Notes under the pieces: generated by a model | Seen by the model: the letters and a program-made list of their open reading frames with translations, nothing else | Told to the model about the DNA's origin: nothing | Database searches by the model: none | NCBI GenBank assembly: GCA_043803405.1 | Contig: JAZDKB010000036.1 | Span: 32,001-96,000, forward strand | Direction of reading: 5' to 3' | From: Spirochaetota bacterium | GTDB taxonomy: Bacteria; Spirochaetota; UBA4802; JAFGDQ01 | Length of the DNA stretch: 64,000 bases | Position numbers and translations under genes: made by a program | Part shown: piece after piece, positions 46,545 through 61,779 of the stretch | Layout of the letters: each line of letters begins with the position of its first letter | How positions within the stretch are numbered: the stretch's first letter is position 1

Positions 46545-47792
46545 CTAAATCAGATTATATTCGCGGGCTTTGTTAAGCAGCTCTATTTTATTGTTTATGT
46601 TGAGTTTATGATAAATATTATACAAATGGGTCTCAATAGTGCGCTCTGCAAGATTTAATTTCTTTCCGATTTCAATGTTGGATAAGCCGGTTAAGGACAG
46701 GGTGATTATGTCAAACTGCTTATGCGTAAGTTTATATTTTTTCCGGAATTCTTTTATCCCTTTATTTTCCCTGGATATAACCAGAATGCCGGTAAGGTCT
46801 CCGAAATTATCTGTTATTCCTGTAAAATACGAATCTGTAAATATGTTATCAGGCTTTGCCATATATTCAATTTTGCAATCAAAGCTCTTTATTTGCTTTT
46901 CAGCAAGGTTATGAAGCTCTATGTTTAAATAATTGTTTTCTGATACAATTTCAGAATAATTTTTATTCTTAAGAGCCTCTTTAGAGAGATTATTATCCAT
47001 TAACTCAATAAATTTATTGTTAGCTTCTATTATTCTGAAGTCCGGGCTCAGAAGGATCACAATCTCCTGTATATTAGAAATGATTTTATCTGCTGCCATG
47101 GACGGCTGGAACACAAGGAATTTGTATTTTACCATTGAATACCACAGGCCGGTAATATAAAAAAGCAGAATAGTCGGCCCTGAATTGGGCGGATCGTAAT
47201 ATTTTAACGCAGGGAAAACTATATCCAGCAGGCAGGCAACAGACATGGTTATGAAGTAAAAGATAAGGATCAATCCTGCCTGCTTTTTTATTTTCTGAAG
47301 TCTGGTGTTTTTTCTCCAGCTGGCCAGTAAATAGATTACAGTTCCGGCATTAATATTGATAATTATTATATAAAAGATAAATCCGAATGTATCAGGAGTT
47401 ATAATGAACTCCCATCTTCCTTCGTACAGGAAACAATCCGAATAAAGTGTTGAAGATGTTATTGTGATTATTGTAAGTATGACAGCCTGTAAATATATAA
47501 CAGGAATAAAACATTTGTTTAATTTCTTCCCTGTAAGCTCAAAAGTAAAATGCGTGTTCACGCTGAGAAACAGAAATACAAATGGTATCGATGCCTTGTA
47601 CCAGAAAAAAACATTATCCTTGTCATTGGAGGAATATGCAAAACTGGCAAACAAAGCCCAGATTGAAAATGTGAGACACAAAAGAAAGAACAGCCTGTGG
47701 GTTATGCTTTTATAATTGAATCTTAGAATATAAATTCCGAAATAAACGAAGCTTATAAATATAATGATATTTAAAAGTGAAAGTATATTCAT
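46545..47792 (-). CDS. Membrane-bound one-component regulator: 7TM sensor + PAS-like + LuxR HTH
   Basis: Seven hydrophobic segments; LT.KQ.DII.L...GLSN.EIG.KL.LAERTIETHL.NIY.KL. Confidence 0.85.
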   Translation of the reverse strand: MNILSLLNIIIFISFVYFGIYILRFNYKSITHRLFFLLCLTFSIWALFASFAYSSNDKDNVFFWYKASIPFVFLFLSVNTHFTFELTGKKLNKCFIPVIYLQAVILTIITITSSTLYSDCFLYEGRWEFIITPDTFGFIFYIIIININAGTVIYLLASWRKNTRLQKIKKQAGLILIFYFITMSVACLLDIVFPALKYYDPPNSGPTILLFYITGLWYSMVKYKFLVFQPSMAADKIISNIQEIVILLSPDFRIIEANNKFIELMDNNLSKEALKNKNYSEIVSENNYLNIELHNLAEKQIKSFDCKIEYMAKPDNIFTDSYFTGITDNFGDLTGILVISRENKGIKEFRKKYKLTHKQFDIITLSLTGLSNIEIGKKLNLAERTIETHLYNIYHKLNINNKIELLNKAREYNLI

Positions 47793-47946
47793 TTTCTTTT
47801 TGATAATGAAATATGGAGTTTTTCAATTATTATCATTTTGTATTACATAAAATATTCAGATTTTTAGCCTTATTATTAAAAGTGCTGTTCAGAAAAAGGA
47901 TTTTCTATACAAAATACTAATTTTATGCAGATCCAGTATGGTTTTG

Positions 47947-48078
47947 CTGCTGCTTCACGGTCATTCTACCTTTGTCTCACGATCATAGTGATGCTATGAC
48001 CGTGAGGTAGAGTTGCTGCCTCACGGTCACTCTAATGCTACCTCAGTGAGGTAGTAATGCTTTCTCACTGAGGTTTTA
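47947..48078. repeat. Tandem array of six 22-bp dyad units in mixed orientation
   Basis: Units start at 47947, 47969, 47991, 48013, 48035 and 48057; cores CTCACGGTCA, TGACCGTGAG or CTCASTGAG. Confidence 0.85.
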
Positions 48079-48204
48079 TCCTTATATCCGTTATATTTAC
48101 TTGTTTTTATTCAGAATTCAGCCTTTTTTAGGTTGTATTTATTTAAAATATATTCATTTAAGATACTTAAATATATTAGTCAATGTAAATTCAGTTGTTA
48201 ATTA

Positions 48205-49677
48205 ATGAACGAATACAAAGAAAATAATGTCCTGATCATAGGCTCCGGCATTGGCGGGCTCTCGTGCGGTATAATTCTTTTAAAGCTCGGTTATAATGTA
48301 ACTGTAATCGAAAAAAACAAAGAGCCCGGCGGCATGATGCGCAGCTACAGGCGCCTCGGTATTGAATGCCCGGTCGGCGTGCACTACTTGGGATCGCTGG
48401 ATAACAACCAGGTTCTCCGCCGGATATTCGATTATCTTGGCGTTACATCAAAGATTCAACTGGAACGAATGGGCGTTAATGCGCCAATAGACAAATACAT
48501 TTTCGACGACTTTGCATTTGATCTGCCTTCAGGAATAGACGAGTACGAAAATGCTCTGCTGGAAAAGTTTCCTGATGACAGGAAAGCGATTATAGAAATA
48601 ATGAGCGGCGTAAGAAAGATCGCGTCCATAATGCAAACCCTCGAGTTTATTTCAGGAAGCAGCAATGAGTCTTCAATATTTACATCGTTCGAGTTTTTCG
48701 ATTCAATGGGCGATCTTGTTTCAAAACTAAACTGCTCCAGGAACCTGTGCAGCGTGCTCGAAGTCCCTTGCACATGGATAGGCCTTTCATTAAAAGAGTG
48801 CCCTGTGTTTTATCATTATAATGTTCTTTCGTCTTACCTGTTTTCAGCATGGAGACTTAAATGCAGCGGAGCTGATATGGCAAATGCGTTCGCCGGCAGG
48901 TTTAAAGAGCTTGGAGGAAAAATAATTCTCGGAGATATGGTCGAGAAGATTCTTACAAAGGACCGCGTTGCTGAAGGTATAAGGCTTAAATCCGGACTGG
49001 AGATGAAAAGCAGTATTATTATCGCAGCTGTGCATCCGAAAACAATGCTCGCAATTTTACAGGAGGGATCTGTCAAGCCTGCTTATTCGAAAAGAATAAG
49101 CCAGATTGAAGATACGGACGGAATGTTTTCGGTTCAGCTTGGAGTGGACTCGAAAGCCAGCGAAGAACTGCCTTATAATATCTTCAGGCTGAGAGCGAAT
49201 AAAGAGGGCTCATTATCAAAAGGAGCTTTTTTTCAGCTTAGGAAATCCGAAAAGCCGGATATGAATCTCTTAACTATTATTTCGACCAGTAAATATTCTG
49301 AATGGCAAAAATGGGAAACCACTATAAGCGGAAAAAGAGGGAATGACTATCTTGATAAAAAAGGAATAATAGCTGAAGAATTAATAAACATTGCATCCGG
49401 TTGCATCGGCCCGTTTAAGGGGCAGAAAATTCTGGATACTTACTCGCCGCTCACTATACGGGACTGGGCAGCAAGCCCGTGCGGTTCGGCGTACGGCGTT
49501 CTGCGCTCCAAGGAACAGCTTTTAAAAACAGCGCTTCTTAACAGGACTTCTGTTAAGGGGCTATATCTTGCAGGCCAAAGCGTTCTTGCTCCCGGCATTC
49601 TTGGAACAGCGCTCGGGTCACTGGTGACTGTAAAAGACATAGTAGGAAGCGAGGCATTTAAAGCAGTTATTTTATGA
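48205..49677 (+). CDS. Phytoene-desaturase/retinol-saturase-like FAD oxidoreductase
   Basis: IIGSGIGGL, EK...PGG, SPLT.RD, GSAYG, LYLAGQS...PGI.G. Confidence 0.88.
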   Translation: MNEYKENNVLIIGSGIGGLSCGIILLKLGYNVTVIEKNKEPGGMMRSYRRLGIECPVGVHYLGSLDNNQVLRRIFDYLGVTSKIQLERMGVNAPIDKYIFDDFAFDLPSGIDEYENALLEKFPDDRKAIIEIMSGVRKIASIMQTLEFISGSSNESSIFTSFEFFDSMGDLVSKLNCSRNLCSVLEVPCTWIGLSLKECPVFYHYNVLSSYLFSAWRLKCSGADMANAFAGRFKELGGKIILGDMVEKILTKDRVAEGIRLKSGLEMKSSIIIAAVHPKTMLAILQEGSVKPAYSKRISQIEDTDGMFSVQLGVDSKASEELPYNIFRLRANKEGSLSKGAFFQLRKSEKPDMNLLTIISTSKYSEWQKWETTISGKRGNDYLDKKGIIAEELINIASGCIGPFKGQKILDTYSPLTIRDWAASPCGSAYGVLRSKEQLLKTALLNRTSVKGLYLAGQSVLAPGILGTALGSLVTVKDIVGSEAFKAVIL

Positions 49678-51023
49678 AAATCCTTCTTATATCCGCAAAT
49701 AAACTAAAAAGCCCGTACCCTGTTTATCCGCTCGGACTAGACTATGTCTCTGGTTCTGTTTCGCAAAAACATATTGTAAAAATAATAGACCTTAATGAAT
49801 TTGAGGATATTAATTCAGCCGGCATTACAGTTAAAGACTTTCCTGCTGACATTATAGGAATATCCTTAAGGAACGTGGATAATACTGATACAGGTGACCT
49901 CAAATATTTTCTTGATCAATACAGGAATCTAATCAGCAGTATAAGAAAGAATTCAAAAGCATTGATTGTGCTTGGCGGCAGCGCGTTCACTATTTTTCCT
50001 TCGGAGTTTATGCAGGCTCTGGATGCGGACTATGGAATTATCGGAGAGGGTGAACGGTTCGGCTTTCTGGCAGATGCGCTGGAAGAAAAAAAAGATCCGC
50101 TTGAAATTCACGGCGTAATTGCAAAGAATTCGGTAGCGAAGATACCGCAGCCGTGGCCCGAATCAATAATAAGAAAATTTAATACGAATAATTCATATAT
50201 CAATTATTATCTTAACAAGGGCGGGATGCTCAATCTCCAGACAAAGAGAGGCTGCTCTTTTAAATGCATATACTGCACGTATCCGCATATTGAGGGGAGC
50301 AGCCTGAGGCTGTTCCCGCCAGGCGAGATCGCAAAGACTGCTCTGGAACTCGAAAAAGCAGGTGCTAAATACTTATTCATTACTGACTCTGCGTTTAACT
50401 GCAGCTATGCTCACAGCACGGAAGTGGCCAACGCATTTATAAAGGCAGGATTGTCCATTCCATGGGGCGCGTTCTTTGCCCCTACGCGCCCGCCTGCCGG
50501 TTATTATACCACGCTGGCAAAGGCAGGGCTTACGCACACGGAATTCGGCACTGAATCCATGTCGGATACCATGCTGCGAAGTTACAGGAAGCCTTTTAAT
50601 ACTGCGGACGTATTTCACGCTCACAAGCTTGCGCTCGATGCAGGGCTCCATGTTGCGCACTACTTTTTATTCGGAGGCCCGGGCGAGAACAGCGCGACCC
50701 TTGATGAGTCCCTAGCCAACATTGAAAGATTATCAAAGGCAGTGTTCTTCATGTTCTGCGGCATGAGGATTTATCCGCATACGGAGCTTTATGAGATCGC
50801 AAAAAAAGAAGGACAGTTAACAGAATCAATGTCATTGCTTGAACCGGTATTTTATAAATCAAATGCAATCTCTTCTGAAGATATAATAAAAGCAATAGAG
50901 GCCAGGGCAGGCGGCAGGCAGAACTGGGTAACAGGTTCGGGCAGCAAAAAAACATCCAGATTGATGAGCCGCATGTATAAGCACGGGCACACAGGCCCTT
51001 TATGGGAGCATTTGATACAATGA
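49674..51023 (+). CDS. B12-binding radical SAM protein (lipid-biosynthesis-cluster type)
   Basis: PYPVYPLGLDY, ISLRNVD, QTKRGCSFKCIYCTYP. Confidence 0.9.
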   Translation: MKILLISANKLKSPYPVYPLGLDYVSGSVSQKHIVKIIDLNEFEDINSAGITVKDFPADIIGISLRNVDNTDTGDLKYFLDQYRNLISSIRKNSKALIVLGGSAFTIFPSEFMQALDADYGIIGEGERFGFLADALEEKKDPLEIHGVIAKNSVAKIPQPWPESIIRKFNTNNSYINYYLNKGGMLNLQTKRGCSFKCIYCTYPHIEGSSLRLFPPGEIAKTALELEKAGAKYLFITDSAFNCSYAHSTEVANAFIKAGLSIPWGAFFAPTRPPAGYYTTLAKAGLTHTEFGTESMSDTMLRSYRKPFNTADVFHAHKLALDAGLHVAHYFLFGGPGENSATLDESLANIERLSKAVFFMFCGMRIYPHTELYEIAKKEGQLTESMSLLEPVFYKSNAISSEDIIKAIEARAGGRQNWVTGSGSKKTSRLMSRMYKHGHTGPLWEHLIQ

Positions 51024-51817
51024 AGAAGCGGGATAACTTTACGTTTACTCCTTTTCACATTACAGGCATAATCGCAATACTACTCTCGGTCGTTCTTTTA
51101 TTTAAGAGCGCTATGCTTGCGCTTGCTCCCCTGGCTGTTTTCGCTCTGATCTGCGCAGTGGCGCCGTTCATGACAGGTTTCGGCTTTTTTCTGCCTGTGA
51201 TAAGCCGCGGGCTAGCCGGCAAAAACGCTGTTGCTCTCACATTTGACGACGGGCCTTCGGACGACGTTACACCTGCTGTGCTGAAGCTGCTATCGAAATA
51301 TTCTGCCAAAGCGACCTTCTTCGTAACAGGCGAAAACGCGTCCCGGCATCCGGAAATAATCAGAAAAATTCTTAAACAGGGACATTTAATCGGCAATCAT
51401 TCGTTTAAGCACGATCCGCTGCTTATGCTTCGGACAAGAAAGACGCTCTTTAACGAAATAAGCGAATGCCAGAATATCTTACAAAAATTTAAAATAACGC
51501 CCTGTGCATTCAGACCGCCCGCGGGGATAACGAATCCGAGGCTGCGCGGTGTCCTGGCAGAACTCGGTTTATTCTGCGTAAACTGGAGCTGCAGGGGATT
51601 CGATGCAGGGAACAGAAACGTAAAAGGCCTTTCGGATAAGATCCTCAAAAAGGTTAAGCCGGGCGACATTATTCTGCTTCACGACGTCAATCCGGGCAGC
51701 AGTGACAGCGAAAAAAAAATACTTGCCGAGTTTGAAAAATTGCTGAAAGGCCTTAGAAATTCAGGGCTTAATATTGTTCCGCTGCCGGAACTTATCGAAA
51801 AAGATGTGATGAAATAG
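51020..51817 (+). CDS. Membrane-anchored polysaccharide deacetylase (NodB/CE4)
   Basis: ALTFDDGP, GNHSFKH, FRPP.G, ILLHD; ATGA-coupled. Confidence 0.9.
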   Translation: MKKRDNFTFTPFHITGIIAILLSVVLLFKSAMLALAPLAVFALICAVAPFMTGFGFFLPVISRGLAGKNAVALTFDDGPSDDVTPAVLKLLSKYSAKATFFVTGENASRHPEIIRKILKQGHLIGNHSFKHDPLLMLRTRKTLFNEISECQNILQKFKITPCAFRPPAGITNPRLRGVLAELGLFCVNWSCRGFDAGNRNVKGLSDKILKKVKPGDIILLHDVNPGSSDSEKKILAEFEKLLKGLRNSGLNIVPLPELIEKDVMK

Positions 51818-51860
51818 GCTCTTGCATATAAAAGCAGGTATAGACTTGTCTTTTTTTTAC

Positions 51861-51890
51861 TTGACATTATTTGTTATGCGGAAATATTGT
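51861..51890 (+). promoter_or_regulatory. Possible internal sigma70 promoter
   Basis: TTGACA-18bp-TATTGT upstream of the dehydratase. Confidence 0.4.
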
Positions 51891-51956
51891 TAAGTTTACT
51901 TTTTATTGAACAAATTAAAAAATAATGTCATTTAATAGCCGGTTTAACAGTAAAGT

Positions 51957-52328
51957 ATGAATGACTGGTATTCGCTTTCAAATTTGCAATTAGACTCTGG
52001 GAAAAATATTTCAGCAAATGCCGTAGTGCCTGCAGATTCGCCATGGTTTTCCGGGCATTTTCCCGGACAGCCTATATTGCCGGGTATTGCAGAATTGTCG
52101 ATTGTTTTCGATTTACTAAAAAAAAATCATAATATTACTGGAAATAAGAATAATTTAATTATATTATCTTTAAAGAAGGTCAGGTTTAAAGTTCTCGTTA
52201 AACCGGAAGAATTGCTTAATATTAAAGTTATTCAGGTTGAGAATTCAGCAAATACCTATTCATTTAAAATAACTGCTGCTAATAAATTAACCTGTTCAGG
52301 CACTATCGCAGTAACAGAAACCAGCTAA
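51957..52328 (+). CDS. FabZ/ApeI-like 3-hydroxyacyl-ACP dehydratase
   Basis: SPWFSGHFPGQPILPGI, VRF...VKP. Confidence 0.85.
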   Translation: MNDWYSLSNLQLDSGKNISANAVVPADSPWFSGHFPGQPILPGIAELSIVFDLLKKNHNITGNKNNLIILSLKKVRFKVLVKPEELLNIKVIQVENSANTYSFKITAANKLTCSGTIAVTETS

Positions 52329-52373
52329 AACATTTAAATGGCAGACCGATTTGTCCGAAATGGAGGAAAATTA

Positions 52374-52643
52374 ATGGCAAAAACTATTGAAGCAAAAGAT
52401 ATTATTTTAAAGACAGCAGAAATAATTATCAATGAATTGAAACTGGAAGATATTACAGCCGAGACATTTGACCCGGATCTTGACCTTGTTGATGAACTCG
52501 GAATTGACAGCATGGATCTTACTACTGTTGCGCTTGTGCTTCAGGATGAGTATAATATTACCATTGATGAAGACGACTATCCGACTTTAAAGACAGTACG
52601 GTTAATATCAGATTATATTCAGAAAGAACTTAAGAGTAAATAA
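52374..52643 (+). CDS. Acyl carrier protein
   Basis: Acidic; ELGIDSMD with the Ppant serine; GGAGG SD before ATG 52374. Confidence 0.92.
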   Translation: MAKTIEAKDIILKTAEIIINELKLEDITAETFDPDLDLVDELGIDSMDLTTVALVLQDEYNITIDEDDYPTLKTVRLISDYIQKELKSK

Positions 52644-52650
52644 TTTATAT

Positions 52651-53769
52651 ATGATTCAAGCAGGCAAAAAAATAGACGCCCTTGATTTATCAGCCCTGAT
52701 AAATAAAGGCTGCGCTCTTAAAAAAAACAAATGGAAATTCTCCGATCTTATAGCTGATCCGACTATTCGCGATAGATGGGAAAAAGTAAAAAAATATTTC
52801 TTTCTCCGCGAAACCACTTACGATATGAGCAACCGCTGTAATCTGAAATGCGACGGATGCTATTACTATGAGGGCGACAAGCAGTTCACTGAAGAGAACA
52901 GGGACCCGGAAGCATGGCGCGCCCTTATGCGCGAAGAAAAAGCCCGCGGAATAACATACGTGGTACTTGCGGGCGCTGAGCCGTCGCTTTCGCCTGAGCT
53001 TTTAAAAGTGTGCTATGAAGAAATACCGCTCGGGAGCATAGCGACGAACGGCTTTAAGCGCATTCCCGAAGAAGTCGATTACATGATACATATATCAGTA
53101 TGGGGAAATGACAAAACAACGGCAAGGATACGCGGCGCCGAAAACCTGTTAAAAAAGCAAATCCAGAATTACAAAGGCGATCCAAGGGCTGTATTTGTTT
53201 ATACTTTCACAAAAGAGAACATAAACGAAGTCTATGAAGTAATAAATATAATATCGGAAAATAACTGCAAAATAACATTTAACATGTTTTCATCTCCTGT
53301 AGGCTATATGGGTGGCCTTCGTCATACAAAAGAGTCCCTGCTAAGAACAAGAAATGCAATGATAGACCTGTTAAAGAAGTATCCCGATAACGTGCTGTTC
53401 TCACCGTACAGCGCTGTTTCGCATACGCACGAAAAATCCCTGCATGATTTATTTAAATGTTCATATCCGAGAGTAAATTCGTCCACTGATATAGGACTGG
53501 GACGTTCGTTCAGGCAGTACAGGACAAATCTTTCGTGGGACAGAAGCGCGGCGTGCTGCGTGCCCGACACTGACTGCGACGACTGCAGGCATTACGCGTC
53601 CGGGAGCGCTGTAGTAACCGCAAGGCTTTACAGGCACGCGGTAAATCCGGAATCTTTTAAGTCATGGCTGGATTATGTTGACACTTATCTGTCGATCTGG
53701 GTCAGAGGCTACGAAAAAAGCAAAAATCTTTGCGATGTTCCTTACTCACCGCCTGGATTCGAATTATAA
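52651..53769 (+). CDS. Radical SAM protein with C-terminal Cys cluster
   Basis: CNLKCDGC, GAEP, CCVPDTDCDDC. Confidence 0.88.
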   Translation: MIQAGKKIDALDLSALINKGCALKKNKWKFSDLIADPTIRDRWEKVKKYFFLRETTYDMSNRCNLKCDGCYYYEGDKQFTEENRDPEAWRALMREEKARGITYVVLAGAEPSLSPELLKVCYEEIPLGSIATNGFKRIPEEVDYMIHISVWGNDKTTARIRGAENLLKKQIQNYKGDPRAVFVYTFTKENINEVYEVINIISENNCKITFNMFSSPVGYMGGLRHTKESLLRTRNAMIDLLKKYPDNVLFSPYSAVSHTHEKSLHDLFKCSYPRVNSSTDIGLGRSFRQYRTNLSWDRSAACCVPDTDCDDCRHYASGSAVVTARLYRHAVNPESFKSWLDYVDTYLSIWVRGYEKSKNLCDVPYSPPGFEL

Positions 53770-53804
53770 CACACAATCATTTATTTTTATTTTAGGAAAG
53801 GTTA

Positions 53805-54803
53805 ATGGAAACAGTCAGCTCACTATTGGATAAGGAATGGCTGCAAAGATATAAGAATATATCGAAACTCAATATACGCAGTTCCATTTATGATGTTACA
53901 AACCAGTGCAATCTGCGATGCAAGGGCTGTTTCTTTTTTTCATCTGATGAGCACAAGAGGGGTCAGGAAGAAAAAGATTTAAATAAATGGGAACAGTTCA
54001 TTGATAATGAGATAAAACGCGGAGTTAATCTCGCGATTCTGATAGGCGGAGAGCCGACGCTGTACCTTGACAGGGTCGAAGCATTTTACAAAAGGGTGCC
54101 TACATACTGCGCTACAAACGGCATTATTAAAGTTCCGCGCGACCGCTTTCCCGACATGATGATCGGGATATCCCTGTGGGGCGATGAAGAAGACGAAAAA
54201 GTCCTGAGGGGCAAAAACGCTTTTGCTATCTCCAGGAAAAATTATGAAGGCGATCCTCATACATACTATTTGTATACCATCACTCCAAAACAGGTTGGGC
54301 ATACAGAGCGCGTAATAAAGAAAATAAAAGATGCCGGATTAAAAGTACATCTGCAGCTTTTATCCAATGATGAAGATGTTGACGGATTCCACTGGACTGA
54401 GGATCAGCTAAAGGATATATGCATTGAAATGGACGCAATGCTTGACAAATATCCTGAAACAATCATTTCCAGCAAGTATTATCATAAAATCATAACAACA
54501 GGAATAATGATGGGACGTCCTTTCGGCTGGAAAGAATGCCCTTCAGTGACAGAACCGCTCGACAAACGCAATCCCAGACCAAAAAGGCTTATCCATTTCA
54601 TACGCTGGGCATCGGATCTGAAAACCATGCACAGATGCTGCACGTCCGAAACAAGGGATTGCACAACATGCAAAGACGGGGCAGCGCACATGAGCTGGGT
54701 AATGGTCAACAAAAGAGAACACATTAAAACAAAAGAAGATCTCCAGAACTGGATTGAAGTTTACGAGATGTTCGCGAAATTATACCAGTTCATTCCCTGG
54801 TGA
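53805..54803 (+). CDS. Radical SAM protein with C-terminal Cys cluster (paralog)
   Basis: CNLRCKGC, GGEP, CCTSETRDCTTC. Confidence 0.88.
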   Translation: METVSSLLDKEWLQRYKNISKLNIRSSIYDVTNQCNLRCKGCFFFSSDEHKRGQEEKDLNKWEQFIDNEIKRGVNLAILIGGEPTLYLDRVEAFYKRVPTYCATNGIIKVPRDRFPDMMIGISLWGDEEDEKVLRGKNAFAISRKNYEGDPHTYYLYTITPKQVGHTERVIKKIKDAGLKVHLQLLSNDEDVDGFHWTEDQLKDICIEMDAMLDKYPETIISSKYYHKIITTGIMMGRPFGWKECPSVTEPLDKRNPRPKRLIHFIRWASDLKTMHRCCTSETRDCTTCKDGAAHMSWVMVNKREHIKTKEDLQNWIEVYEMFAKLYQFIPW

Positions 54804-54809
54804 CCTCAT

Positions 54810-54959
54810 GAGACTGTCTCATAATAAAAAATTTGCCACAGAGGCACAAAGGATATTTACTTAAATAAAGCTGTTTTATTAATATTTTAAACAATTCATT
54901 AAAATAATTGTTAAACTCTGTGCCTCAGTGTCTCAGTGGCATTCTTTTGAGACAATCCC
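54810..54959. mobile_element. MITE-like intergenic element
   Basis: GAGACTGTCTCATAA versus inverted GGGATTGTCTCAAAA; inner GCCACAGAGGCACA / TGTGCCTCAGTG stem around an AT-rich core. Confidence 0.5.
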
Positions 54960-55002
54960 CAGGGAGTGAGGTTCAAAACATACTTTTAGTATTAAATAAA
55001 AA

Positions 55003-56262
55003 TTGGCAAAAGAACGAAACAAACAGGCAGTAATACTGGGATACGATACTGTATCGCCTCTCGGAACAGATTTCCAAATCCAATGGAAGCGCGCTGTTAA
55101 CGGAGAATGCGGTATAAAGGAACTTACTCGCTTTCCGCTACGTGAAGGTTTCCCGGTTAAAATTGCCGGACAGGTTGATGAAATTGACTGCACGCCTTAT
55201 CCGTTTTTAAGCCCCCGGGAGCTGGCCAACTGGACTTCTCCGATATTCAAATATGCAATGCTGGTTGTGCACAGAGCGCTTGTAAAAAGCGGAATAGAAA
55301 TAACACCTGAATTATCCCCGAGAATCGGCATTACCTTCAGCTCTGCTGTAGGCGGCCTTGATGCAGTTATTAATGCTGACAGATTATTAAACGCGAAAAA
55401 CAAACTGCCTCATCCGTTTACAAATCCGAATTCATGCATAAATATGGTAGGCGGAAAAGTATCTATATTAACAAAAGCCACAGGTCCGATTGTCTCAACC
55501 GTTACCGCGTGCGCTACAGGATGCACATCCATGATTATAGGCTCAATGATGATTGAGCAGGGAATGGCGGATGCTGTTATATGCGGAGCTGTAGATTTCT
55601 CGCTGGTTGAACCTATTGTCGGGGGCTTTGCTTCGATGAACGGCACATACAGCCCCAAAAAAGGCCAGCCTCATGAAGCGCCGGAAAAGACAAGCCGTCC
55701 ATTTTCAATTAACAGAAGGGGATTCGTAATAAGCGAAGGAGCGGGGTCGGTAATAATTGCGTCCAGGGAATTTGCAGAATCGCACGGTCTTAAATATAAT
55801 ATTGCAATATCCGGTTACAGCATGACATCTGATGCGCATCATTTTGTGGCGCCTAATTATGAAACAGTTAAAAGATGCATTGCCCAGTCTATAGAAAATG
55901 CCGGACTTAAACCGCAGGATATTTCTGCCGTAAACGCGCATGCAACATCTACCAAAATAGGCGATACGGTTGAAGTTAAAGCTTTAACCGATGTTTTTAG
56001 CGGCAAAATACCGCCGGCTTCAGGAAACAAATCGCAGATAGGGCATTGCATGGGTGCTTCAAGCGCAATCGAGGCTATTTTTGCCATGGAAGGTATGATG
56101 CGCTATACATTGCTTCCTACAATAAACTATACGCCCGATCCTGAACTTGTTATCGACTGCGTACCGGAGGGCGCGAGGCACGCTGAACAGGAATTTGTGC
56201 TAAAAAACGCGTTCGGGTTCGGCGGATGCAATTCATGCCTTGTTTTTCAAAGAGAAAATTAA
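55003..56262 (+). CDS. Beta-ketoacyl-ACP synthase (FabF/FabB-like) 1
   Basis: TACATG, NAHATST, KSQIGHCMGA, NAFGFGG.N; TTG start. Confidence 0.93.
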   Translation: MAKERNKQAVILGYDTVSPLGTDFQIQWKRAVNGECGIKELTRFPLREGFPVKIAGQVDEIDCTPYPFLSPRELANWTSPIFKYAMLVVHRALVKSGIEITPELSPRIGITFSSAVGGLDAVINADRLLNAKNKLPHPFTNPNSCINMVGGKVSILTKATGPIVSTVTACATGCTSMIIGSMMIEQGMADAVICGAVDFSLVEPIVGGFASMNGTYSPKKGQPHEAPEKTSRPFSINRRGFVISEGAGSVIIASREFAESHGLKYNIAISGYSMTSDAHHFVAPNYETVKRCIAQSIENAGLKPQDISAVNAHATSTKIGDTVEVKALTDVFSGKIPPASGNKSQIGHCMGASSAIEAIFAMEGMMRYTLLPTINYTPDPELVIDCVPEGARHAEQEFVLKNAFGFGGCNSCLVFQREN

Positions 56263-56265
56263 TTT

Positions 56266-56464
56266 ACCACAGATGGACACAGATTAAACAAGTTATTAAA
56301 AATTTTGATAAAAGGATATTTTTTAGTTTTAAAAAAATTATTTTCCTTTACTTACTTTATTTCTTTTATTTTTATATCTTCAAATGTGTATAATATTATA
56401 CTTTTCGAATAATTTTTTTTAAAATTTGAGACATAATTATAATTTTTCTGTGTAAATCTGTGGT
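56266..56464. repeat. Inverted-repeat-bounded AT-rich element
   Basis: ACCACAGATGGACACAGA versus inverted ACCACAGATTTACACAGA (16/18 match). Confidence 0.65.
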
Positions 56465-56473
56465 TAAACAATT

Positions 56474-57739
56474 ATGAAGGCACCAAAGAACAGACGCGTA
56501 TTCGTTATCGGATACGAAGTCATAACTCCGCTCGGAAAAACTTTTAAAGAGACCTGGAACAGGGCTGTAAAATCGGAAGCCGGTTTCAGGAAGCTTACCA
56601 AGTTTAATGTGCAGTCGGATTGCAACGTGGTCGGGGAAATACCGGATTGGAATCCTGCAGAATTTAATTTTGTAGATGAAAAAGAAATATATAACTGGAA
56701 CGCTGCTTTTATTATTTTAACAATGGCAGTATGCAAGGCAGCGCTCGAAAATTCCGGGCTTGAGATTAATAAGATAACGAGTCCGAGAACCGCCTGTTTA
56801 ATATCATCCTGTATTAATGGACATGATGCATACCGTATTGCAATGGACAGCCTTCTTAACAAAGGGCCATTAAAAGTGAGTCCTTATTTGCTTCCGAACA
56901 TGTGCGGAAATCTGCCGGGTGGAAAATCAAGCATGCTTCTGGGCTTTACGGGTCCCATATTTTCACCGCAGGGCGCATGCGCTTCGGGCAACCATTCAAT
57001 CGGACTCGGAGCCCGTATGATAAGGGATGGAGACTGCGACTTTGCAATAGTGGGCGGAGCTGACACTCCTATCCTTCCGGAAATAATTCACGGATTCGAC
57101 AACATGAATGCCACCTTAAAGGTGCGGCCAAAAGACCGCGCTTACGATGATCCGGCTCAGGCCTCCAGGCCGTTCAGCGGTGACAGAAAGGGCTTTATAC
57201 TGTCCGAGGGCGCAGGGGCGCTTGTACTTGCTGCCGAGGAGATGCTCACGACTTATGGTTTAAAACCGAAAGCTGAAGTGCTCGGCATAGGCTGGACATC
57301 GGACGCGTATCATTTTACAACGCCGAATAAAGACAGCATTGTCCGCTGCATAAACGAAGCAATTGATGACGCGGCTTTAAAACCTGAGGACATCCAGTAT
57401 GTAAATGCCCACGGCACGTCAACGCAGACGGGAGACAGAAGCGAGGTCGAATGCCTTCAAAGAGTGTTCGGTAAACACCTTGCTCACATGCCGGTATCCT
57501 CAAACAAATCCCAGCTTGGCCATACGCTTGCGGGTTGCGCTGCAATAGAAGCTGCGCTTACAATAGAAGGAATGCAAAAAGGAATAATCCTGCCGACCAT
57601 TAATCATATACCTGACCCTAAGATAGAGAACATTGACGTGGTTCCCAACACACCGCGCAAACAAAATTTTGAGCTTGCGCTTTCCAATGCATTCGGCTTT
57701 GGCGGCACCAACTGCTGCGTCATATTCAGGGGAGTTTAG
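56474..57739 (+). CDS. Beta-ketoacyl-ACP synthase (FabF-like) 2
   Basis: GACASG, NAHGTST, KSQLGHTL, NAFGFGGTN. Confidence 0.93.
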   Translation: MKAPKNRRVFVIGYEVITPLGKTFKETWNRAVKSEAGFRKLTKFNVQSDCNVVGEIPDWNPAEFNFVDEKEIYNWNAAFIILTMAVCKAALENSGLEINKITSPRTACLISSCINGHDAYRIAMDSLLNKGPLKVSPYLLPNMCGNLPGGKSSMLLGFTGPIFSPQGACASGNHSIGLGARMIRDGDCDFAIVGGADTPILPEIIHGFDNMNATLKVRPKDRAYDDPAQASRPFSGDRKGFILSEGAGALVLAAEEMLTTYGLKPKAEVLGIGWTSDAYHFTTPNKDSIVRCINEAIDDAALKPEDIQYVNAHGTSTQTGDRSEVECLQRVFGKHLAHMPVSSNKSQLGHTLAGCAAIEAALTIEGMQKGIILPTINHIPDPKIENIDVVPNTPRKQNFELALSNAFGFGGTNCCVIFRGV

Positions 57740-57740
57740 A

Positions 57741-58229
57741 ATGAAGCCGAAGCCTTTTATTGCAAAGATATATAATAATGACGAACGTTATGTGAAAGAA
57801 GAGTCAACCGGCCTCATCTGGCACAGATGCAGCCACCGCACGCTGTACGCTGATACTGACCGGTCGTCCGTGGTTTATCATTCCAATTATCTGCGCTATT
57901 TCGAGCAGGGACGCGCTACCCTTATGCGCGATAACGTGTACCCGTATTATGAAATAGAAGAAAGCGGGTACGTATATCCGATCATTGAAACTGGGATCAA
58001 ATACTTCAGGCCTCTTCGTTATGATGACCTGATGTGGATTCATACAAGGCCGGATATGATAGAACGCGTTAAGCTGCAGTTCGAATATTTAATAACTCAT
58101 ACCGAAACCGGCGAAATCGTCTGCACCGGTTTCACCCGTCATTGCGCTTCCAATAAATCCGGCAAACCTGTCGCAATAGATCCCAAAACGGTTGAGCTAT
58201 GGAAAAACTTCCCAATAATCCGGAAATGA
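57741..58229 (+). CDS. YbgC/FadM-type hotdog thioesterase
   Basis: YADTD...VVYHSNYLRYFEQGR, Y.RPLRYDD; GGGAG SD before ATG 57741. Confidence 0.88.
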   Translation: MKPKPFIAKIYNNDERYVKEESTGLIWHRCSHRTLYADTDRSSVVYHSNYLRYFEQGRATLMRDNVYPYYEIEESGYVYPIIETGIKYFRPLRYDDLMWIHTRPDMIERVKLQFEYLITHTETGEIVCTGFTRHCASNKSGKPVAIDPKTVELWKNFPIIRK

Positions 58230-59710
58230 CCGGGAAACAAAGTATTCAAATCGAAATACCAATCTATCCGTTCATGAAAGATCACAGATTTTCCGGCAGA
58301 ATTGTTATCCCTGCTGTGGAATTATGCCAGGTACTTGCTCTGGAAATAAAAAAGCATATACCGGATATAAATAATCAAATAATATATAATGCTTCATTCG
58401 ATAAATTTATTGATATCAATGGTGATGAGAAAATAACTGCACTTAACGAAATTAAATCTTATGAGGACGGCACGTTTGTATCAAAACTATTAACAAAGAC
58501 AAAAACAAGATCCGGCATAATCCGCACCAATGAACATGTATCAATGGACTTCAGAAAGGACGCTCTGCCATTTAAAGAATTAACTTACGATGTCGCTTCT
58601 GCGCTTGACGGCTTGTGTTTGCGGGTGCAGCCACAGGAAATCTACAGCGAGCTTGTGCCGTTCGGCCCGGCTTATCATAATGTCACAGGCGACCTGTATG
58701 TGGCGGACAGCGGAGCTGCTGCCTGCATAGTTGCACCGGCGGAGATGAGCCCCGGCCCGCTCGGGTCGCCTTTTGTTTTCGATGCTGCTTTGCACGCTGC
58801 CAGCGTATGGGCGCAGCGTTATCATAATACAACTGCTTTTCCGGTCGCGTTTTCCAAGCGGATCATACTAAAGCCGGCAGAGGCAGGCAAAAAATATTTT
58901 ACAAGGATTATTCCGGTACAGTCCGAAGCAAAAATATTTAAATTTGATATCTGGATTTACGATTACGAAGGCGTTCTTCGCGAGGCGGGGTTCGGCGTCT
59001 CATTCAGGGATGTAACCGGAGGCACATTACAGACTCCGGAATGGATAACTAAAAATAAAAATAATTTATTGTATGATATTTTATCGAAATGTGATGCGTT
59101 TTCGGTTGTTGAGCTGGATCAGATACCGGAGTTCGCCTCCAAAGCTCTCTCAATCGATGAACTTCGCAGGCTGGAACCCATGAGAGAGAAACGCAGAAAA
59201 AGTTACACAGGCGCAAGACTGGCATGTAAATTTCTTTCCAGGAAACTCTCCAAAGAAAGCTTTGATCTGCCCGCAGATAAAATCACAACTATCATAAATA
59301 ACATTTACCCTGCATGCCCGCTTCCGGACGGCAGCATGCCATACAAATGTACGGTTTCTCACGACAGCCGTTTCGCTGTTGCAGCAGCATCACGAAAGCG
59401 CATAGGCATTGATGTTGAAGAGATATCTGAGCGTGTTATAGAGCTAAGAAAATATTATATGAGCGAGGAAGAACAAAATCTTGTTGATTCTTCAGGTCTG
59501 GAAAAAAAGGCAGCATGCCTCAGGATCTGGTCAATTAAGGAAGCAGTAACAAAAGCTCTCGACATAGATCTAACCGGATCATGGAAAAGCGTGCAGGTAA
59601 TGGATATCGGTGAAAATATCACCAAATTTTTAATTAATAATATTGAAAATAATGCATACCACTGTACTATAGATAATCATATCTTTACGCTGGTTCAGTT
59701 CGGGGAATAA
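58226..59710 (+). CDS. PKS-type double-hotdog dehydratase fused to an Sfp-type 4'-phosphopantetheinyl transferase
   Basis: DHRFSGRIVIPA, FGPAY, FDAALH; then VSHD, IGIDVE, WSIKEA..KA; ATGA-coupled. Confidence 0.82.
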   Translation: MTGKQSIQIEIPIYPFMKDHRFSGRIVIPAVELCQVLALEIKKHIPDINNQIIYNASFDKFIDINGDEKITALNEIKSYEDGTFVSKLLTKTKTRSGIIRTNEHVSMDFRKDALPFKELTYDVASALDGLCLRVQPQEIYSELVPFGPAYHNVTGDLYVADSGAAACIVAPAEMSPGPLGSPFVFDAALHAASVWAQRYHNTTAFPVAFSKRIILKPAEAGKKYFTRIIPVQSEAKIFKFDIWIYDYEGVLREAGFGVSFRDVTGGTLQTPEWITKNKNNLLYDILSKCDAFSVVELDQIPEFASKALSIDELRRLEPMREKRRKSYTGARLACKFLSRKLSKESFDLPADKITTIINNIYPACPLPDGSMPYKCTVSHDSRFAVAAASRKRIGIDVEEISERVIELRKYYMSEEEQNLVDSSGLEKKAACLRIWSIKEAVTKALDIDLTGSWKSVQVMDIGENITKFLINNIENNAYHCTIDNHIFTLVQFGE

Positions 59711-60300
59711 TGTTGCAGGTTATCATTCTATTTATAGCTGCGTATCTGGCTGGTTCTGTTAATATAGCTATTCTGCTTTTTAAAATTATCGGCAAGGAAG
59801 ATCCGCGCAGCAAATTCAGCGGCAATGCTGGAACAGTAAACATTTACCGCCAGGCAGGGCTTTTCTGGGCAGCGGTTGTATTTATACTGGATTTCAGCAA
59901 AGCAATCGGGTTATCCGCGCTTTCTTTGCATCTGTTGGAACCGGAGTTCGCGCCGCTGATCTGCTTAGGGTTGCTTCTGGGAAACAGGTTCCCGTGCTTT
60001 CATGGTTTCCGCGGAGGAAAAGGAGTAGCGAACTTTCTCGGATTTACCGCAGTTATTACGCCGATATGGGCAGGGGCAGCTGCAGCTGTGTGGGTAATTG
60101 TTTACCTGATTGTGAAGACGCCTTTTATTGCATCGCTTTCAATGACGATTCTGTTGGCTATCGGGATTATAATAGCAAATCAATATAATCAGTTCTCTGC
60201 GGTAATCAGTATCCTGATAGTATTATTTATTATTTATAATCATAAAATAAATATTACTGAATTTAAAAAGAATTTTAAAAATCAGTCCAAATCTCCATAA
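59710..60300 (+). CDS. plsY: Glycerol-3-phosphate acyltransferase PlsY family
   Basis: AYLAGS, DPR...SGNAG..N..R, LD..K, FP.F..FRGGKGVA, H..NI. Confidence 0.85.
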   Translation: MLQVIILFIAAYLAGSVNIAILLFKIIGKEDPRSKFSGNAGTVNIYRQAGLFWAAVVFILDFSKAIGLSALSLHLLEPEFAPLICLGLLLGNRFPCFHGFRGGKGVANFLGFTAVITPIWAGAAAAVWVIVYLIVKTPFIASLSMTILLAIGIIIANQYNQFSAVISILIVLFIIYNHKINITEFKKNFKNQSKSP

Positions 60301-60387
60301 CCGCAATAAGTCGGGATAATAATTATCCTGATTTATTCGCTAAGATAAGAGGTTTTGGAATGCAATAATGTTAAAGAAGAATGAGTT

Positions 60388-61779
60388 ATGAATAACAAAT
60401 TATTTATTATAATATTGATTTGTATCTTATCATTAATAACCAGCTTTGCGTATTTAGAAGAAAACACAAATGCTGAAAAACTGCCGAAAAACGCAAAATA
60501 CCTGCAGGAACCGGTGTTTAACAGTAAAATATATTTTTATGAATCAGACAACGAATTCAAAATAAATGTTATACTGGTACACGGCGTAGGCGATGACGCT
60601 TCGGATATATGGAAAGGCCTGGTCCCGGTGCTTGAAAAACAGTTTCATGTGATTTATTTTGATCTTCCGGGATTCGGAAGATCGGGAAAAGAAGATGCCC
60701 TTTATTCGCCGCAAAACTACGCAGCATTAATTAAATGGATCCGTGACCGGAACCCGGATAAACCGATGTACTTAATCGGGCACTCAATGGGCGGGGCTAT
60801 TTCGCTTTGTTATGCAGGCACATATCCACAAAGCTTACAGCGCCTCATACTTGTTGACGCAGCAGGCATTTTGCACAGAACGGCTTTTACAAAAAACCTC
60901 GCGGAAGCTAAAGTATCGGAACTGAGCAGAAATAAAATTTTCAGCGATGAACTGGATATATTAAGCCGCTTTATTGAGACCAGCTTATTAATGAACGAAA
61001 TGCAGCAGATACTTCCAAAGGATTTATCGCCTGTTCTTGAAAATTCTTTTTTAAGGCGAAAGCTTCTCAGCAGTCCGCAAAAAATAGCATCCGTATCTAT
61101 GATTTACAGTGATTTCAGCAAGCAGATTGAAAATATTAATGTTCCGTGTTTTATTATATGGGGCGGTAAAGATCCGATAGCGCCGCTAAGAACAGGCAAA
61201 ATGCTTGCCTCGAATATTCAGAACTCAAGTCTTTTTATAATGCCCGGGCTTGGCCATAACCCGATGATCGAACGTCCTGCCGAATTTAATAATCTTATCT
61301 TAAAAAGTCTAACTGCCGAATCCGTGCCAAATCAGGAAAAAAAATCACAATCTTTAAATATTAAATCCATCACACTCGACAACAGAGAAAACGTGATCAT
61401 TGAGGGTGATTATAAAGAAATTAAGATAAATAATTGCCGGAATATTTTAATAAAAAATACAAATGCCAGTGCAGTTAAAATAAAAAATTCGTGGGTTGAT
61501 ATGGAAAATATTTCTGTAAATTCCTCCGAAGTCGGCATGATTCTGGAAGAATCAATCATTGAAATTACCGGCGGTGTTATTTCCGGGGATACTGGGATTT
61601 CGGTTTCCGACAGCAAAGTCGATATCGCAGGAGTAAAAATAGAAGGGAAAAAGGCTGCAGTTTCATCAAGTTCAAAAAGCAATTCCACTATTGTTTTTTC
61701 AGTATGCAGAATCAGAAGCCCTTACAACAATAAAAATATTCATGATATTATTGAGATCACAAAGGAAAACTCATTATAA
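60388..61779 (+). CDS. Exported alpha/beta hydrolase with C-terminal beta-helix-like domain
   Basis: VHG, DLPGFG.S, GHSMGG, WG.KD, GH.P; Ile/Asn/Ser-rich repetitive tail. Confidence 0.82.
   Translation: MNNKLFIIILICILSLITSFAYLEENTNAEKLPKNAKYLQEPVFNSKIYFYESDNEFKINVILVHGVGDDASDIWKGLVPVLEKQFHVIYFDLPGFGRSGKEDALYSPQNYAALIKWIRDRNPDKPMYLIGHSMGGAISLCYAGTYPQSLQRLILVDAAGILHRTAFTKNLAEAKVSELSRNKIFSDELDILSRFIETSLLMNEMQQILPKDLSPVLENSFLRRKLLSSPQKIASVSMIYSDFSKQIENINVPCFIIWGGKDPIAPLRTGKMLASNIQNSSLFIMPGLGHNPMIERPAEFNNLILKSLTAESVPNQEKKSQSLNIKSITLDNRENVIIEGDYKEIKINNCRNILIKNTNASAVKIKNSWVDMENISVNSSEVGMILEESIIEITGGVISGDTGISVSDSKVDIAGVKIEGKKAAVSSSSKSNSTIVFSVCRIRSPYNNKNIHDIIEITKENSL

Follow-up and report, generated by a model that had tools for sequence, protein, structure and literature searches.

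We analyzed a 64,000-nucleotide stretch of a Spirochaetota genome (assembly GCA_043803405.1, contig JAZDKB010000036.1, positions 32,001 to 96,000), hereafter the window, which carries at 48205..61779 a row of 13 genes (g1 to g13) with fatty acid synthase, radical S-adenosylmethionine (SAM) and PlsY domains. The core of this row consists of an acyl carrier protein (ACP), twin radical SAM enzymes (rSAM-a and rSAM-b), twin ketosynthases (KS-a and KS-b), a thioesterase (TE) and a dehydratase (DH), often with PlsY, and these genes are the best-conserved part of a lipid pathway of hundreds of oxygen-avoiding bacterial species. We propose, with a probability of roughly 0.45, that the window holds one of three ACP/KS modules for a glycophospholipid resembling the aryl polyene lipid, its radical-tailored chain reaching the sn-1 position by way of a thioesterase, a kinase and PlsY. 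Because the other two chains of the aryl polyene lipid have counterparts here, a custom sn-1 chain was assigned to the window module by elimination.

All 13 open reading frames lie on the + strand, and searches against Pfam and NCBIfam recovered the domains that an initial annotation had named for this co-oriented row. It had also described many of the genes as translationally coupled, in agreement with the 8 of 12 junctions that are of 35 bp or less, 4 of these 8 overlapping. Only g2 (TIGR04072) and g10 (TIGR00051) passed NCBIfam cut-offs; the other 11 scored below. In what follows, G000 is the genome that holds the window, C-numbers are its contigs, other G-numbers are other genomes and L-numbers are fetched loci.

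Conservation of the core module

A search with rSAM-b in a one-genome-per-species collection matched at least 594 stretches, of which at least 578 were confirmed. Neighborhoods were sampled from the best 80 of these confirmed loci, picked by rSAM-b; 38 of them had at least 9.5 kb on both sides (full loci), and a gene was counted if it lay within about 10 kb. Totals for motif counts (e.g. 75/75 or 64/64) include a few re-fetched duplicate loci. The best 80 rSAM-b matches were 75-93% identical and spread across phyla, with Spirochaetota, Desulfobacterales, Syntrophales, SAR324 and others represented, and their carriers include the culturable Desulfosarcina widdelii and Desulfosarcina variabilis. 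The distribution was patchy, with rSAM-b in 10/61 relatives and in 10/151 sampled Desulfobacterota.

The order ACP-rSAMa-rSAMb was found in 66 of 67 loci with room for it, and rSAMb was followed by KSa in 68 of 71. The 38 full loci contained the ACP and rSAM-a without exception (38 each), KS-a and KS-b in 36 each, the single hot-dog dehydratase g4 in 35, and g10 and g11 in 34 each. A second ACP was counted in 28, the deacetylase in 26, g2 in 25, PlsY in 24, a fusion of KS and chain-length factor (KS-CLF) in 20, FabG in 19, LolA in 18, the oxidoreductase g1 and MMPL in 10 each, and g13 in one. From these counts the invariant unit is ACP-rSAMa-rSAMb-KSa-KSb-TE-DH. The core genes are co-conserved far beyond chance, and the oxidoreductase is an optional, accessory component. 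Thus the co-conservation expected by the initial annotation held for the core and broke down for the oxidoreductase and the terminal hydrolase, and the marker pair on which it had relied, the oxidoreductase with the B12-binding radical SAM enzyme (B12-rSAM), turned out to be the variable part, the invariant part being the twin non-B12 radical SAM/KS module. The same low counts for g1 and g13 place the right-hand boundary of the cluster better at the end of PlsY (60300). A membrane protein of ~130 amino acids with no Pfam match (G000:C18:144389-144772; L003:371-784) was present in 18/38 full loci.

The twin radical SAM enzymes

rSAM-a (g6, 52651..53769, +), which is putatively twitch-like, and rSAM-b (g7, 53805..54803, +, 332 aa) are paralogues with 26% identity. 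Both carry a CxxxCxxC motif; in g6 it was kept together with C270, C302, C303, C309 and C312 in 79/79 loci, and in g7 eight cysteines (the motif plus five C-terminal) were kept in 87/87. Neither protein gave a SPASM match in Pfam, no solved structure matched g7 better than E 0.006, and no curated radical SAM family fitted the pair or 25 distant representatives at NCBIfam cut-offs. Homologues scoring E 1e-10 or better formed 247 clusters at 50% identity, many of them fragments. The SPASM/twitch enzymes (CteB 5why, anSME 4k37, SkfB 6efn, SuiB, BlsE) and HpnH-type proteins likewise combine a radical SAM barrel with a Cys-rich C-terminal domain. The former were nearest to the predicted rSAM-b model, but at a TM score of only about 0.45-0.49 on a model with pLDDT 68 (C-terminal domain below 50) and at 15-19% identity, and the partners here are an ACP and KS, not peptides. 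An Atlas structure comparison returned HpnH-type DUF3463 proteins at TM 0.69. A nucleoside phosphorylase considered as an HpnG-like partner was rejected as too rare (4 Desulfosarcina-type loci). In one of the 80 loci (L049:8879-10999) rSAM-a and rSAM-b share one 706-aa frame, which may be a sequence error.

g6 and g7 are predicted to oxidize or cyclize a carrier-bound chain, and radical tailoring of an ACP-bound chain, as proposed in the initial annotation, is the likely chemistry. Desaturation, as well as C-C ring closure or cross-linking, appears possible to the same degree, each of them tentatively; some other chemistry is only slightly less so.

Aerobes carry single rSAM homologues with 31-33% identity on 16 plasmids. 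The neighborhood of the homologue was read in four plasmid records and two metagenome loci; in five of these six a PaaA-like di-iron gene adjoins it, hot-dog, thiolase, AurF-like or Rieske genes being close by, and in the remaining one it lies between ACP-TauD and nonribosomal peptide synthetase (NRPS) genes. In one distant representative, a thioesterase carrying a TubC docking domain is part of the same protein. Since the homologues flank ACP, hot-dog and oxygenase genes, we infer from the neighborhoods that the family acts on thioester-bound substrates in oxidative chemistry; on the same basis, the second radical enzyme of anaerobes possibly replaces the oxygenase of aerobes. The small aerobe operons with the homologue, PaaA-like di-iron and hot-dog genes are at L116:14180-16535, L117:13299-17052, L119:9319-15960, L155 and L159. 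The Alteromonas copy is mobile and identical across many marine metagenomes; its operon of three genes (di-iron, rSAM, MaoC) makes it the simplest of the family. A Methylomagnum plasmid (L118:13362-22154) encodes an ACP, TauD, the homologue and an NRPS that includes sulfotransferase and TPR domains.

Chain-building enzymes of the window

The dedicated ACP (g5, 52338..52643, +, likely start 52374; PF00550) has its Ser58 within a GxDSMDL motif that was invariant in 57/57 loci. KS-a (g8, 55003..56262, +) and KS-b (g9, 56474..57739, +) are FabF-like and 40% identical, and are nearer to ordinary FabF than to other solved KS, with g8 scoring below the FabF cut-off. Their Cys-His-His triads are intact (Cys170-His313-His348 in KS-a, kept in 75/75 loci; Cys169-His313-His350 in KS-b, kept in 64/64). 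On this ground neither is a chain-length factor, a role that was considered for g9 and rejected. In a helix that is mostly hydrophobic in FabF, KS-a (141-147, 55423-55443) and KS-b (142-146, 56897-56911) each carry invariant Asn/Cys residues, a hint of an unusual substrate or of an obligate KS heterodimer.

The FabZ/ApeI-like single hot-dog dehydratase (g4, 51957..52328, +; PF07977, with PF22818 weak) was the only FxGHFP protein found among the ORFs of the genome. In g11 (58199..59710, +; PF14765 and PF01648) a phosphopantetheinyl transferase is joined to a PKS-type double hot-dog dehydratase; His29 was kept in 53/53 and Asp195 in 54/54 loci, and the transferase half aligned in about half of the loci. 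The YbgC/FadM-family hot-dog thioesterase (g10, 57741..58229, +) scored 85.5 against a TIGR00051 cut-off of 68.7. The membrane-anchored NodB-type deacetylase (g3, 51002..51817, +, likely start 51020; PF01522), fused to a methyltransferase in some relatives (L003), would unmask an amino sugar. The phytoene-desaturase-like FAD oxidoreductase (g1, 48205..49677, +; PF01593/PF13450) matched no solved structure at E 1e-6. The catalytic motif positions used here for PlsY, NodB, PKS dehydratases and FakB are those that we presume to apply. Motif scans of the genome gave nothing convincing for FabI, FabK, FabV or a biotin carrier; these scans were crude and do not establish the absence of an enoyl reductase.

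PlsY and a predicted fused fatty acid kinase

PlsY uses an acyl-phosphate rather than an acyl-ACP, and the acyl-phosphate is made by PlsX or by a fatty acid kinase. The window PlsY (g12, 59710..60300, +) scored 118 against 24 for PF02660 and 101 against 137 for TIGR00023, and its motif residues, at presumed positions, were kept in 34-36 of 36 loci. It was the only PlsY found in its genome, and in the two complete Desulfosarcina genomes the cluster PlsY was likewise the only one. PlsX was found in none of five same-family genomes (our own and four others). Of 20 further genomes related to the cluster, 7 had PlsX, and in 13, both complete Desulfosarcina genomes among them, it was not found. The initial annotation had PlsY load the chain onto glycerol-3-phosphate; the apparently intact motifs agree with that step, and what had been overlooked was the need for an acyl-phosphate and the PlsX gap.

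A 576-aa polypeptide on another contig (C18:145894-147624) joins a DegV domain to Dak2 and FakA_M domains and has both the ATP and the zinc site; its FakB-type acid-binding residues were judged from presumed positions. The Asp-Gly-Asp loop and the Cys212/His248/His250 site were invariant in 6/6 aligned copies. Scores were below cut-off for FakA (104 vs 975 bits) and YloV (142 vs 396) and above it for the DegV domain (147 vs 99.7). On sequence grounds we infer that this fusion fills the PlsX gap as a predicted fatty acid kinase. It shares its domains and its zinc and ATP-site residues with the FakA/FakB proteins that work with PlsY in Firmicutes, as covered in parts of PMC10848957 and PMC13245860, and its Cys/His-x-His site matches the FakA zinc site described in part of the former. 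Unlike the Firmicutes proteins, it is a single polypeptide and is confined to a biosynthetic cluster of Gram-negative anaerobes, and it would load an own-made chain instead of serving in scavenging. Release by a FadM thioesterase that bypasses PlsX has a precedent in S. aureus, according to part of PMC13245860.

The kinase and rSAM-b marked the identical 10 of 151 Desulfobacterota genomes, and in 8 of these 10 they lay on one contig within ~18 kb. Among the 61 relatives, the kinase and PlsY marked the identical 13 genomes, namely the 10 rSAM-b carriers, G031 and two with an unrelated two-gene version. Three carriers (G377, G452, G513) with PlsX and a housekeeping PlsY kept the kinase, and their fetched clusters contained no PlsY. 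Of 5 genomes tested, 4, including our own and both complete Desulfosarcina genomes, had a PlsB-like gene that scored below cut-off; the Fak-PlsY route would therefore be an extra one, with the bulk route probably separate.

Remaining pathway genes and the aryl polyene lipid

The window genes are part of a pathway whose remaining aryl-polyene-type genes lie on three other contigs of the genome and are adjacent in relatives; in G006, G443, G452, G494 and G513 most of the off-window pathway genes are contiguous, or nearly so, with the core. Contig C10 encodes ACP2 (97392-97658) and the KS-CLF fusion (95243-97441), and C27 encodes a third ACP (98183-98443), KS3 (96925-98166) and PlsC (96148-96918). 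C18 (142921-162736) encodes a FlxY/PaaK-like ligase, a second thioesterase (TE2), the Dak2-FakA_M-DegV fusion, a GT2 glycosyltransferase, an MMPL-methyltransferase, a lipid-A-type acyltransferase, a second B12-rSAM, a lipoprotein, LolA, FabG and an ApeP-like dehydratase, the last identified by homology only. An AMP ligase and a malonyl transferase are at C36 104341-106574. The genome thus has three ACP/KS sets (C10, C27 and the window) and three acyltransferase types (PlsC, PlsY and lipid-A-type).

All members of the aryl polyene core list (KS, CLF, ACP, DH, ketoreductase and MMPL; 10.1101/2020.12.19.423268) were found in the genome on C10, C18, C27 and C36, and on these four contigs they do not form a single contiguous aryl polyene cluster. 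The best NCBIfam models in the KS comparison, both below cut-off, were PRK09185 and PRK09116, which we take to be linked to ApeO and ApeR. The initial annotation had noted the absence of aryl polyene hallmarks and FabG, which is true of the window and not of the genome, and its setting aside of aryl polyene kinship is not supported.

The solved aryl polyene lipid (APEL) has three chains: an ordinary C14/C16 chain at sn-1 for which no cluster enzyme is needed, a conjugated chain that ApeD puts on sn-2, and the aryl polyene that ApeJ puts on GalNAc (10.1101/2020.12.19.423268). Shared with the APEL clusters apeB-R of Xenorhabdus and E. coli are KS and CLF (fused here), an ApeR-like KS with a PlsC-type acyltransferase, extra ACPs, FabG, ApeI/ApeP-like dehydratases, an AMP ligase, a thioesterase, GT2 and lipid-A-type acyltransferase (split here), MMPL, LolA and, weakly, a DUF3261-like lipoprotein. 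In contrast, the third ACP/KS module with radical SAM enzymes, the B12-rSAMs, the deacetylase and the kinase-PlsY route to sn-1 are found here and not in APEL clusters. The hosts here are mostly anaerobes, and no pigment or aryl head group is implied.

Relation to the anammox clusters

The B12-binding radical SAM enzyme g2 (49674..51023, +) aligned over the full TIGR04072 (rSAM_ladder_B12) model, positions 1-443, at 392 bits against a cut-off of 360. The TIGRFAM placement suggested in the initial annotation has thus put g2 in TIGR04072 and left g6 and g7 in no curated family. TIGR04072 members were found in 32 of the 151 Desulfobacterota genomes, most of which had neither kinase nor rSAM-b. 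The second B12-rSAM, on C18, was present in all 10 Desulfobacterota carriers (71-74% identity in nine, 53% in one) and in 11/61 relatives. In a second island type, present in ~10 Desulfobacterota genomes (L129, L130), a TIGR04072 gene of high score is combined with one that is sister to the second B12-rSAM, with no rSAM-b or kinase nearby.

Islands of type II fatty acid synthase genes with radical SAM and phytoene-desaturase-like genes are common to Kuenenia and D. psychrophila, according to part of Rattray et al. 2009 (PMC2649909). Anammox cluster genes expressed in E. coli gave poor solubility and no new lipid according to part of Javidpour et al. 2016 (PMC4790861). For comparison we used 14 genomes with HzsA-length matches among 301 Planctomycetota; of the 38 that gave any match, the other 24 had multi-copy or off-length matches and were set aside. 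g2 is the counterpart of the B12-rSAM of anammox cluster II, being 33-35% identical over its full length to the proteins of anammox-type genomes. In G197 the stretch around the g2 homologue has the published cluster II order, with matches of 25-46% identity to g1 (25%), g2, ACP2, FabG, MMPL, methyltransferase, GT2 and ligase. These results bear out the kinship with clusters of anammox bacteria and anaerobic Deltaproteobacteria (Desulfotalea) that had been suggested earlier. Anammox cluster II (kuste3335-3352) and the D. psychrophila island share with the present pathway a TIGR04072 B12-rSAM, a phytoene-desaturase-like oxidoreductase, a deacetylase, an ACP and FabG, as well as MMPL, a methyltransferase, GT2 and a CoA ligase. 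The module of ACP, twin radical SAM, twin KS, TE and DH, the DAK2-DegV fusion and the cluster PlsY were not found in the anammox-type genomes or island (a comparison that leaves out D. psychrophila). None of the 14 HzsA-bearing genomes had a full-length rSAM-b homologue, the profile aligning only over residues 11-164 or so (best E 4e-14), and a search of five anammox-type genomes for DegV gave no match in any of them. With the core not found and the outer genes matched in the anammox set, the outer island is the known part and the core module is an addition. The window rSAM-b groups with Spirochaetota rows with starred support in a quick tree, which is no proof of transfer and accords with a host that is probably a spirochaete and, as held earlier, not an anammox bacterium.

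Proposed pathway and alternatives

In the proposed pathway, KS-a and KS-b would extend a chain on the ACP g5 together with FabG and the dehydratases, and rSAM-a and rSAM-b would carry out two H-abstraction steps, the C-terminal cluster taking the electron. Methyl groups would likely be added by the B12 enzymes, g2 and the second one on C18. The thioesterase would release the chain, the DAK2-DegV fusion would phosphorylate it, and PlsY would load it at sn-1 of glycerol-3-phosphate to give lysophosphatidic acid. The sn-2 chain may come from the ACP, KS3 and PlsC of C27, and GT2, the deacetylase and the lipid-A-type acyltransferase may add a sugar and a chain from the ACP2 and KS-CLF of C10. MMPL, LolA and the lipoprotein would export the lipid.

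Several observations weigh against this proposal and are easier to accommodate if the same glycophospholipid were built with the window chain as a starter, or as the sn-2 or sugar chain, and if an ordinary or differently made acid were loaded at sn-1 by TE2, the kinase and PlsY, an arrangement that we consider somewhat less likely. G031 (96% complete) keeps the kinase, PlsY, KS-CLF and second B12-rSAM with no rSAM-b or KS-a/b, which means that the Fak-PlsY route can do without that module. TE2, not g10, is the thioesterase to which the kinase is coupled, often with an aromatic ammonia-lyase or another KS alongside. D. widdelii has no full KS-CLF fusion and retains the sugar acyltransferase, which the window module could feed; a full fusion was found in 6/10 Desulfobacterota carriers, and three chains are therefore not universal. 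Also unfavorable to the proposed pathway are the PlsX genes of 7/10 Desulfobacterota carriers, the split of the kinase into FakA and DegV genes in G046 and G051, and the kinship of the genomes compared, which are not independent, so that co-occurrence counts overstate. What speaks for loading of the window chain by PlsY is the position of PlsY in the operon of the module in 24/38 full loci, as well as the coincidence of kinase and rSAM-b in 10/10 Desulfobacterota, most of the 32 genomes with TIGR04072 members having neither.

The module could instead be the bulk fatty-acid and phospholipid route of the host, producing anaerobic unsaturated or branched membrane fatty acids. No FabH was found in the genome, nor any type II KS beyond the four of the pathway, and g4 and g12 are its sole FabZ-motif protein and PlsY. 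Nevertheless, type II KS and PlsY are both missing altogether from two same-family genomes (90-96% complete), the genome encodes a large type I PKS in addition to its PlsB-like gene, and the module is patchy (10/61 and 10/151) and accompanied by dedicated export and sugar genes, making this route improbable. The type I PKS (G000:C4:115064-126220; 3132 aa, with a phosphopantetheinyl transferase) may be the housekeeping fatty acid synthase; a similar large PKS was present in each of four same-family genomes tested, including two that lack a type II KS. That the module frees a small molecule, such as a signal or antibiotic, through g10 with no lipid anchor would suit the thioesterase directly after the KS pair and the small aerobe operons that have no lipid-anchor genes; we find it quite improbable in view of the linkage, steady across phyla, to PlsY, the kinase, GT2, acyltransferases and MMPL/LolA. 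The least probable reading is that non-anammox bacteria here make ladderane (fused cyclobutane) lipids, despite the place of g2 in TIGR04072 and the ordered match of the outer genes to the anammox-type island. Against this stand the lack of full-length rSAM-b and of DegV in the anammox comparison, and KS-a and KS-b, which are nearer to FabF and keep both triads, unlike the anammox KS/CLF pair, a cluster I heterodimer with one dead triad as described in part of 10.64898/2026.05.19.726425. Furthermore, D. psychrophila, which has the shared island, had no ladderanes in the portion of PMC2649909 that concerns it.

Extending the proposed pathway to the whole family is more speculative, and we regard the following statement, taken in full, as doubtful. 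The rSAM family would act on carrier-bound acyl chains, as a duplicated pair in anaerobes and as one copy with a di-iron or 2-oxoglutarate oxygenase in aerobes; the anaerobe pair would forge rings or cross-links without oxygen, and the fused kinase and PlsY would install the chain in a triply customized outer-membrane glycophospholipid, a lipid class not yet isolated that would be made by sulfate reducers, syntrophs and spirochaetes in their hundreds, cultured Desulfosarcina among them.

Neighboring features

The spacer between rSAM-b and KS-a (54804-55002) is a dispersed inverted-repeat element that has matches at 23 further places in the genome, 2 of them within the C18 half of the pathway. 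Upstream of g1, an imperfect 44-bp tandem repeat with a hairpin (47930-48090) has 3 other matches in the genome. The divergent 7TM-PAS-LuxR regulator (46545-47792, -) has at least three paralogues in the genome, was found in 0/80 related loci and is probably not the regulator of the cluster. The secreted-type alpha/beta hydrolase g13 (60388..61779, +), with a hydrophobic N-terminus, was rejected as a pathway member and is probably a mere neighbor.

Significance

The core module and the kinase link were not found in the literature searched, including PMC10139942, most subscription journals being outside the search. What is new is a relative of the aryl-polyene and anammox-island clusters whose enzyme family has no name, whose hosts can be cultured and for which we propose a loading route. 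According to part of a 2026 review (PMC13459092), ladderanes and the product of Jaw5 are the sole fatty-acyl lipids proposed to be radical SAM-modified; the present pathway offers a third case, in D. widdelii and D. variabilis, which are non-pathogenic and, unlike anammox bacteria, culturable. Since g2 and the outer island are shared with the ladderane candidates, solving the pathway would also show the role of anammox cluster II. The kinase-PlsY route, if true, assigns the unusual chain to a position that can be tested and would put fatty acid kinase to a new use, and the lipid could serve as a biomarker for anoxic sediments and digesters.

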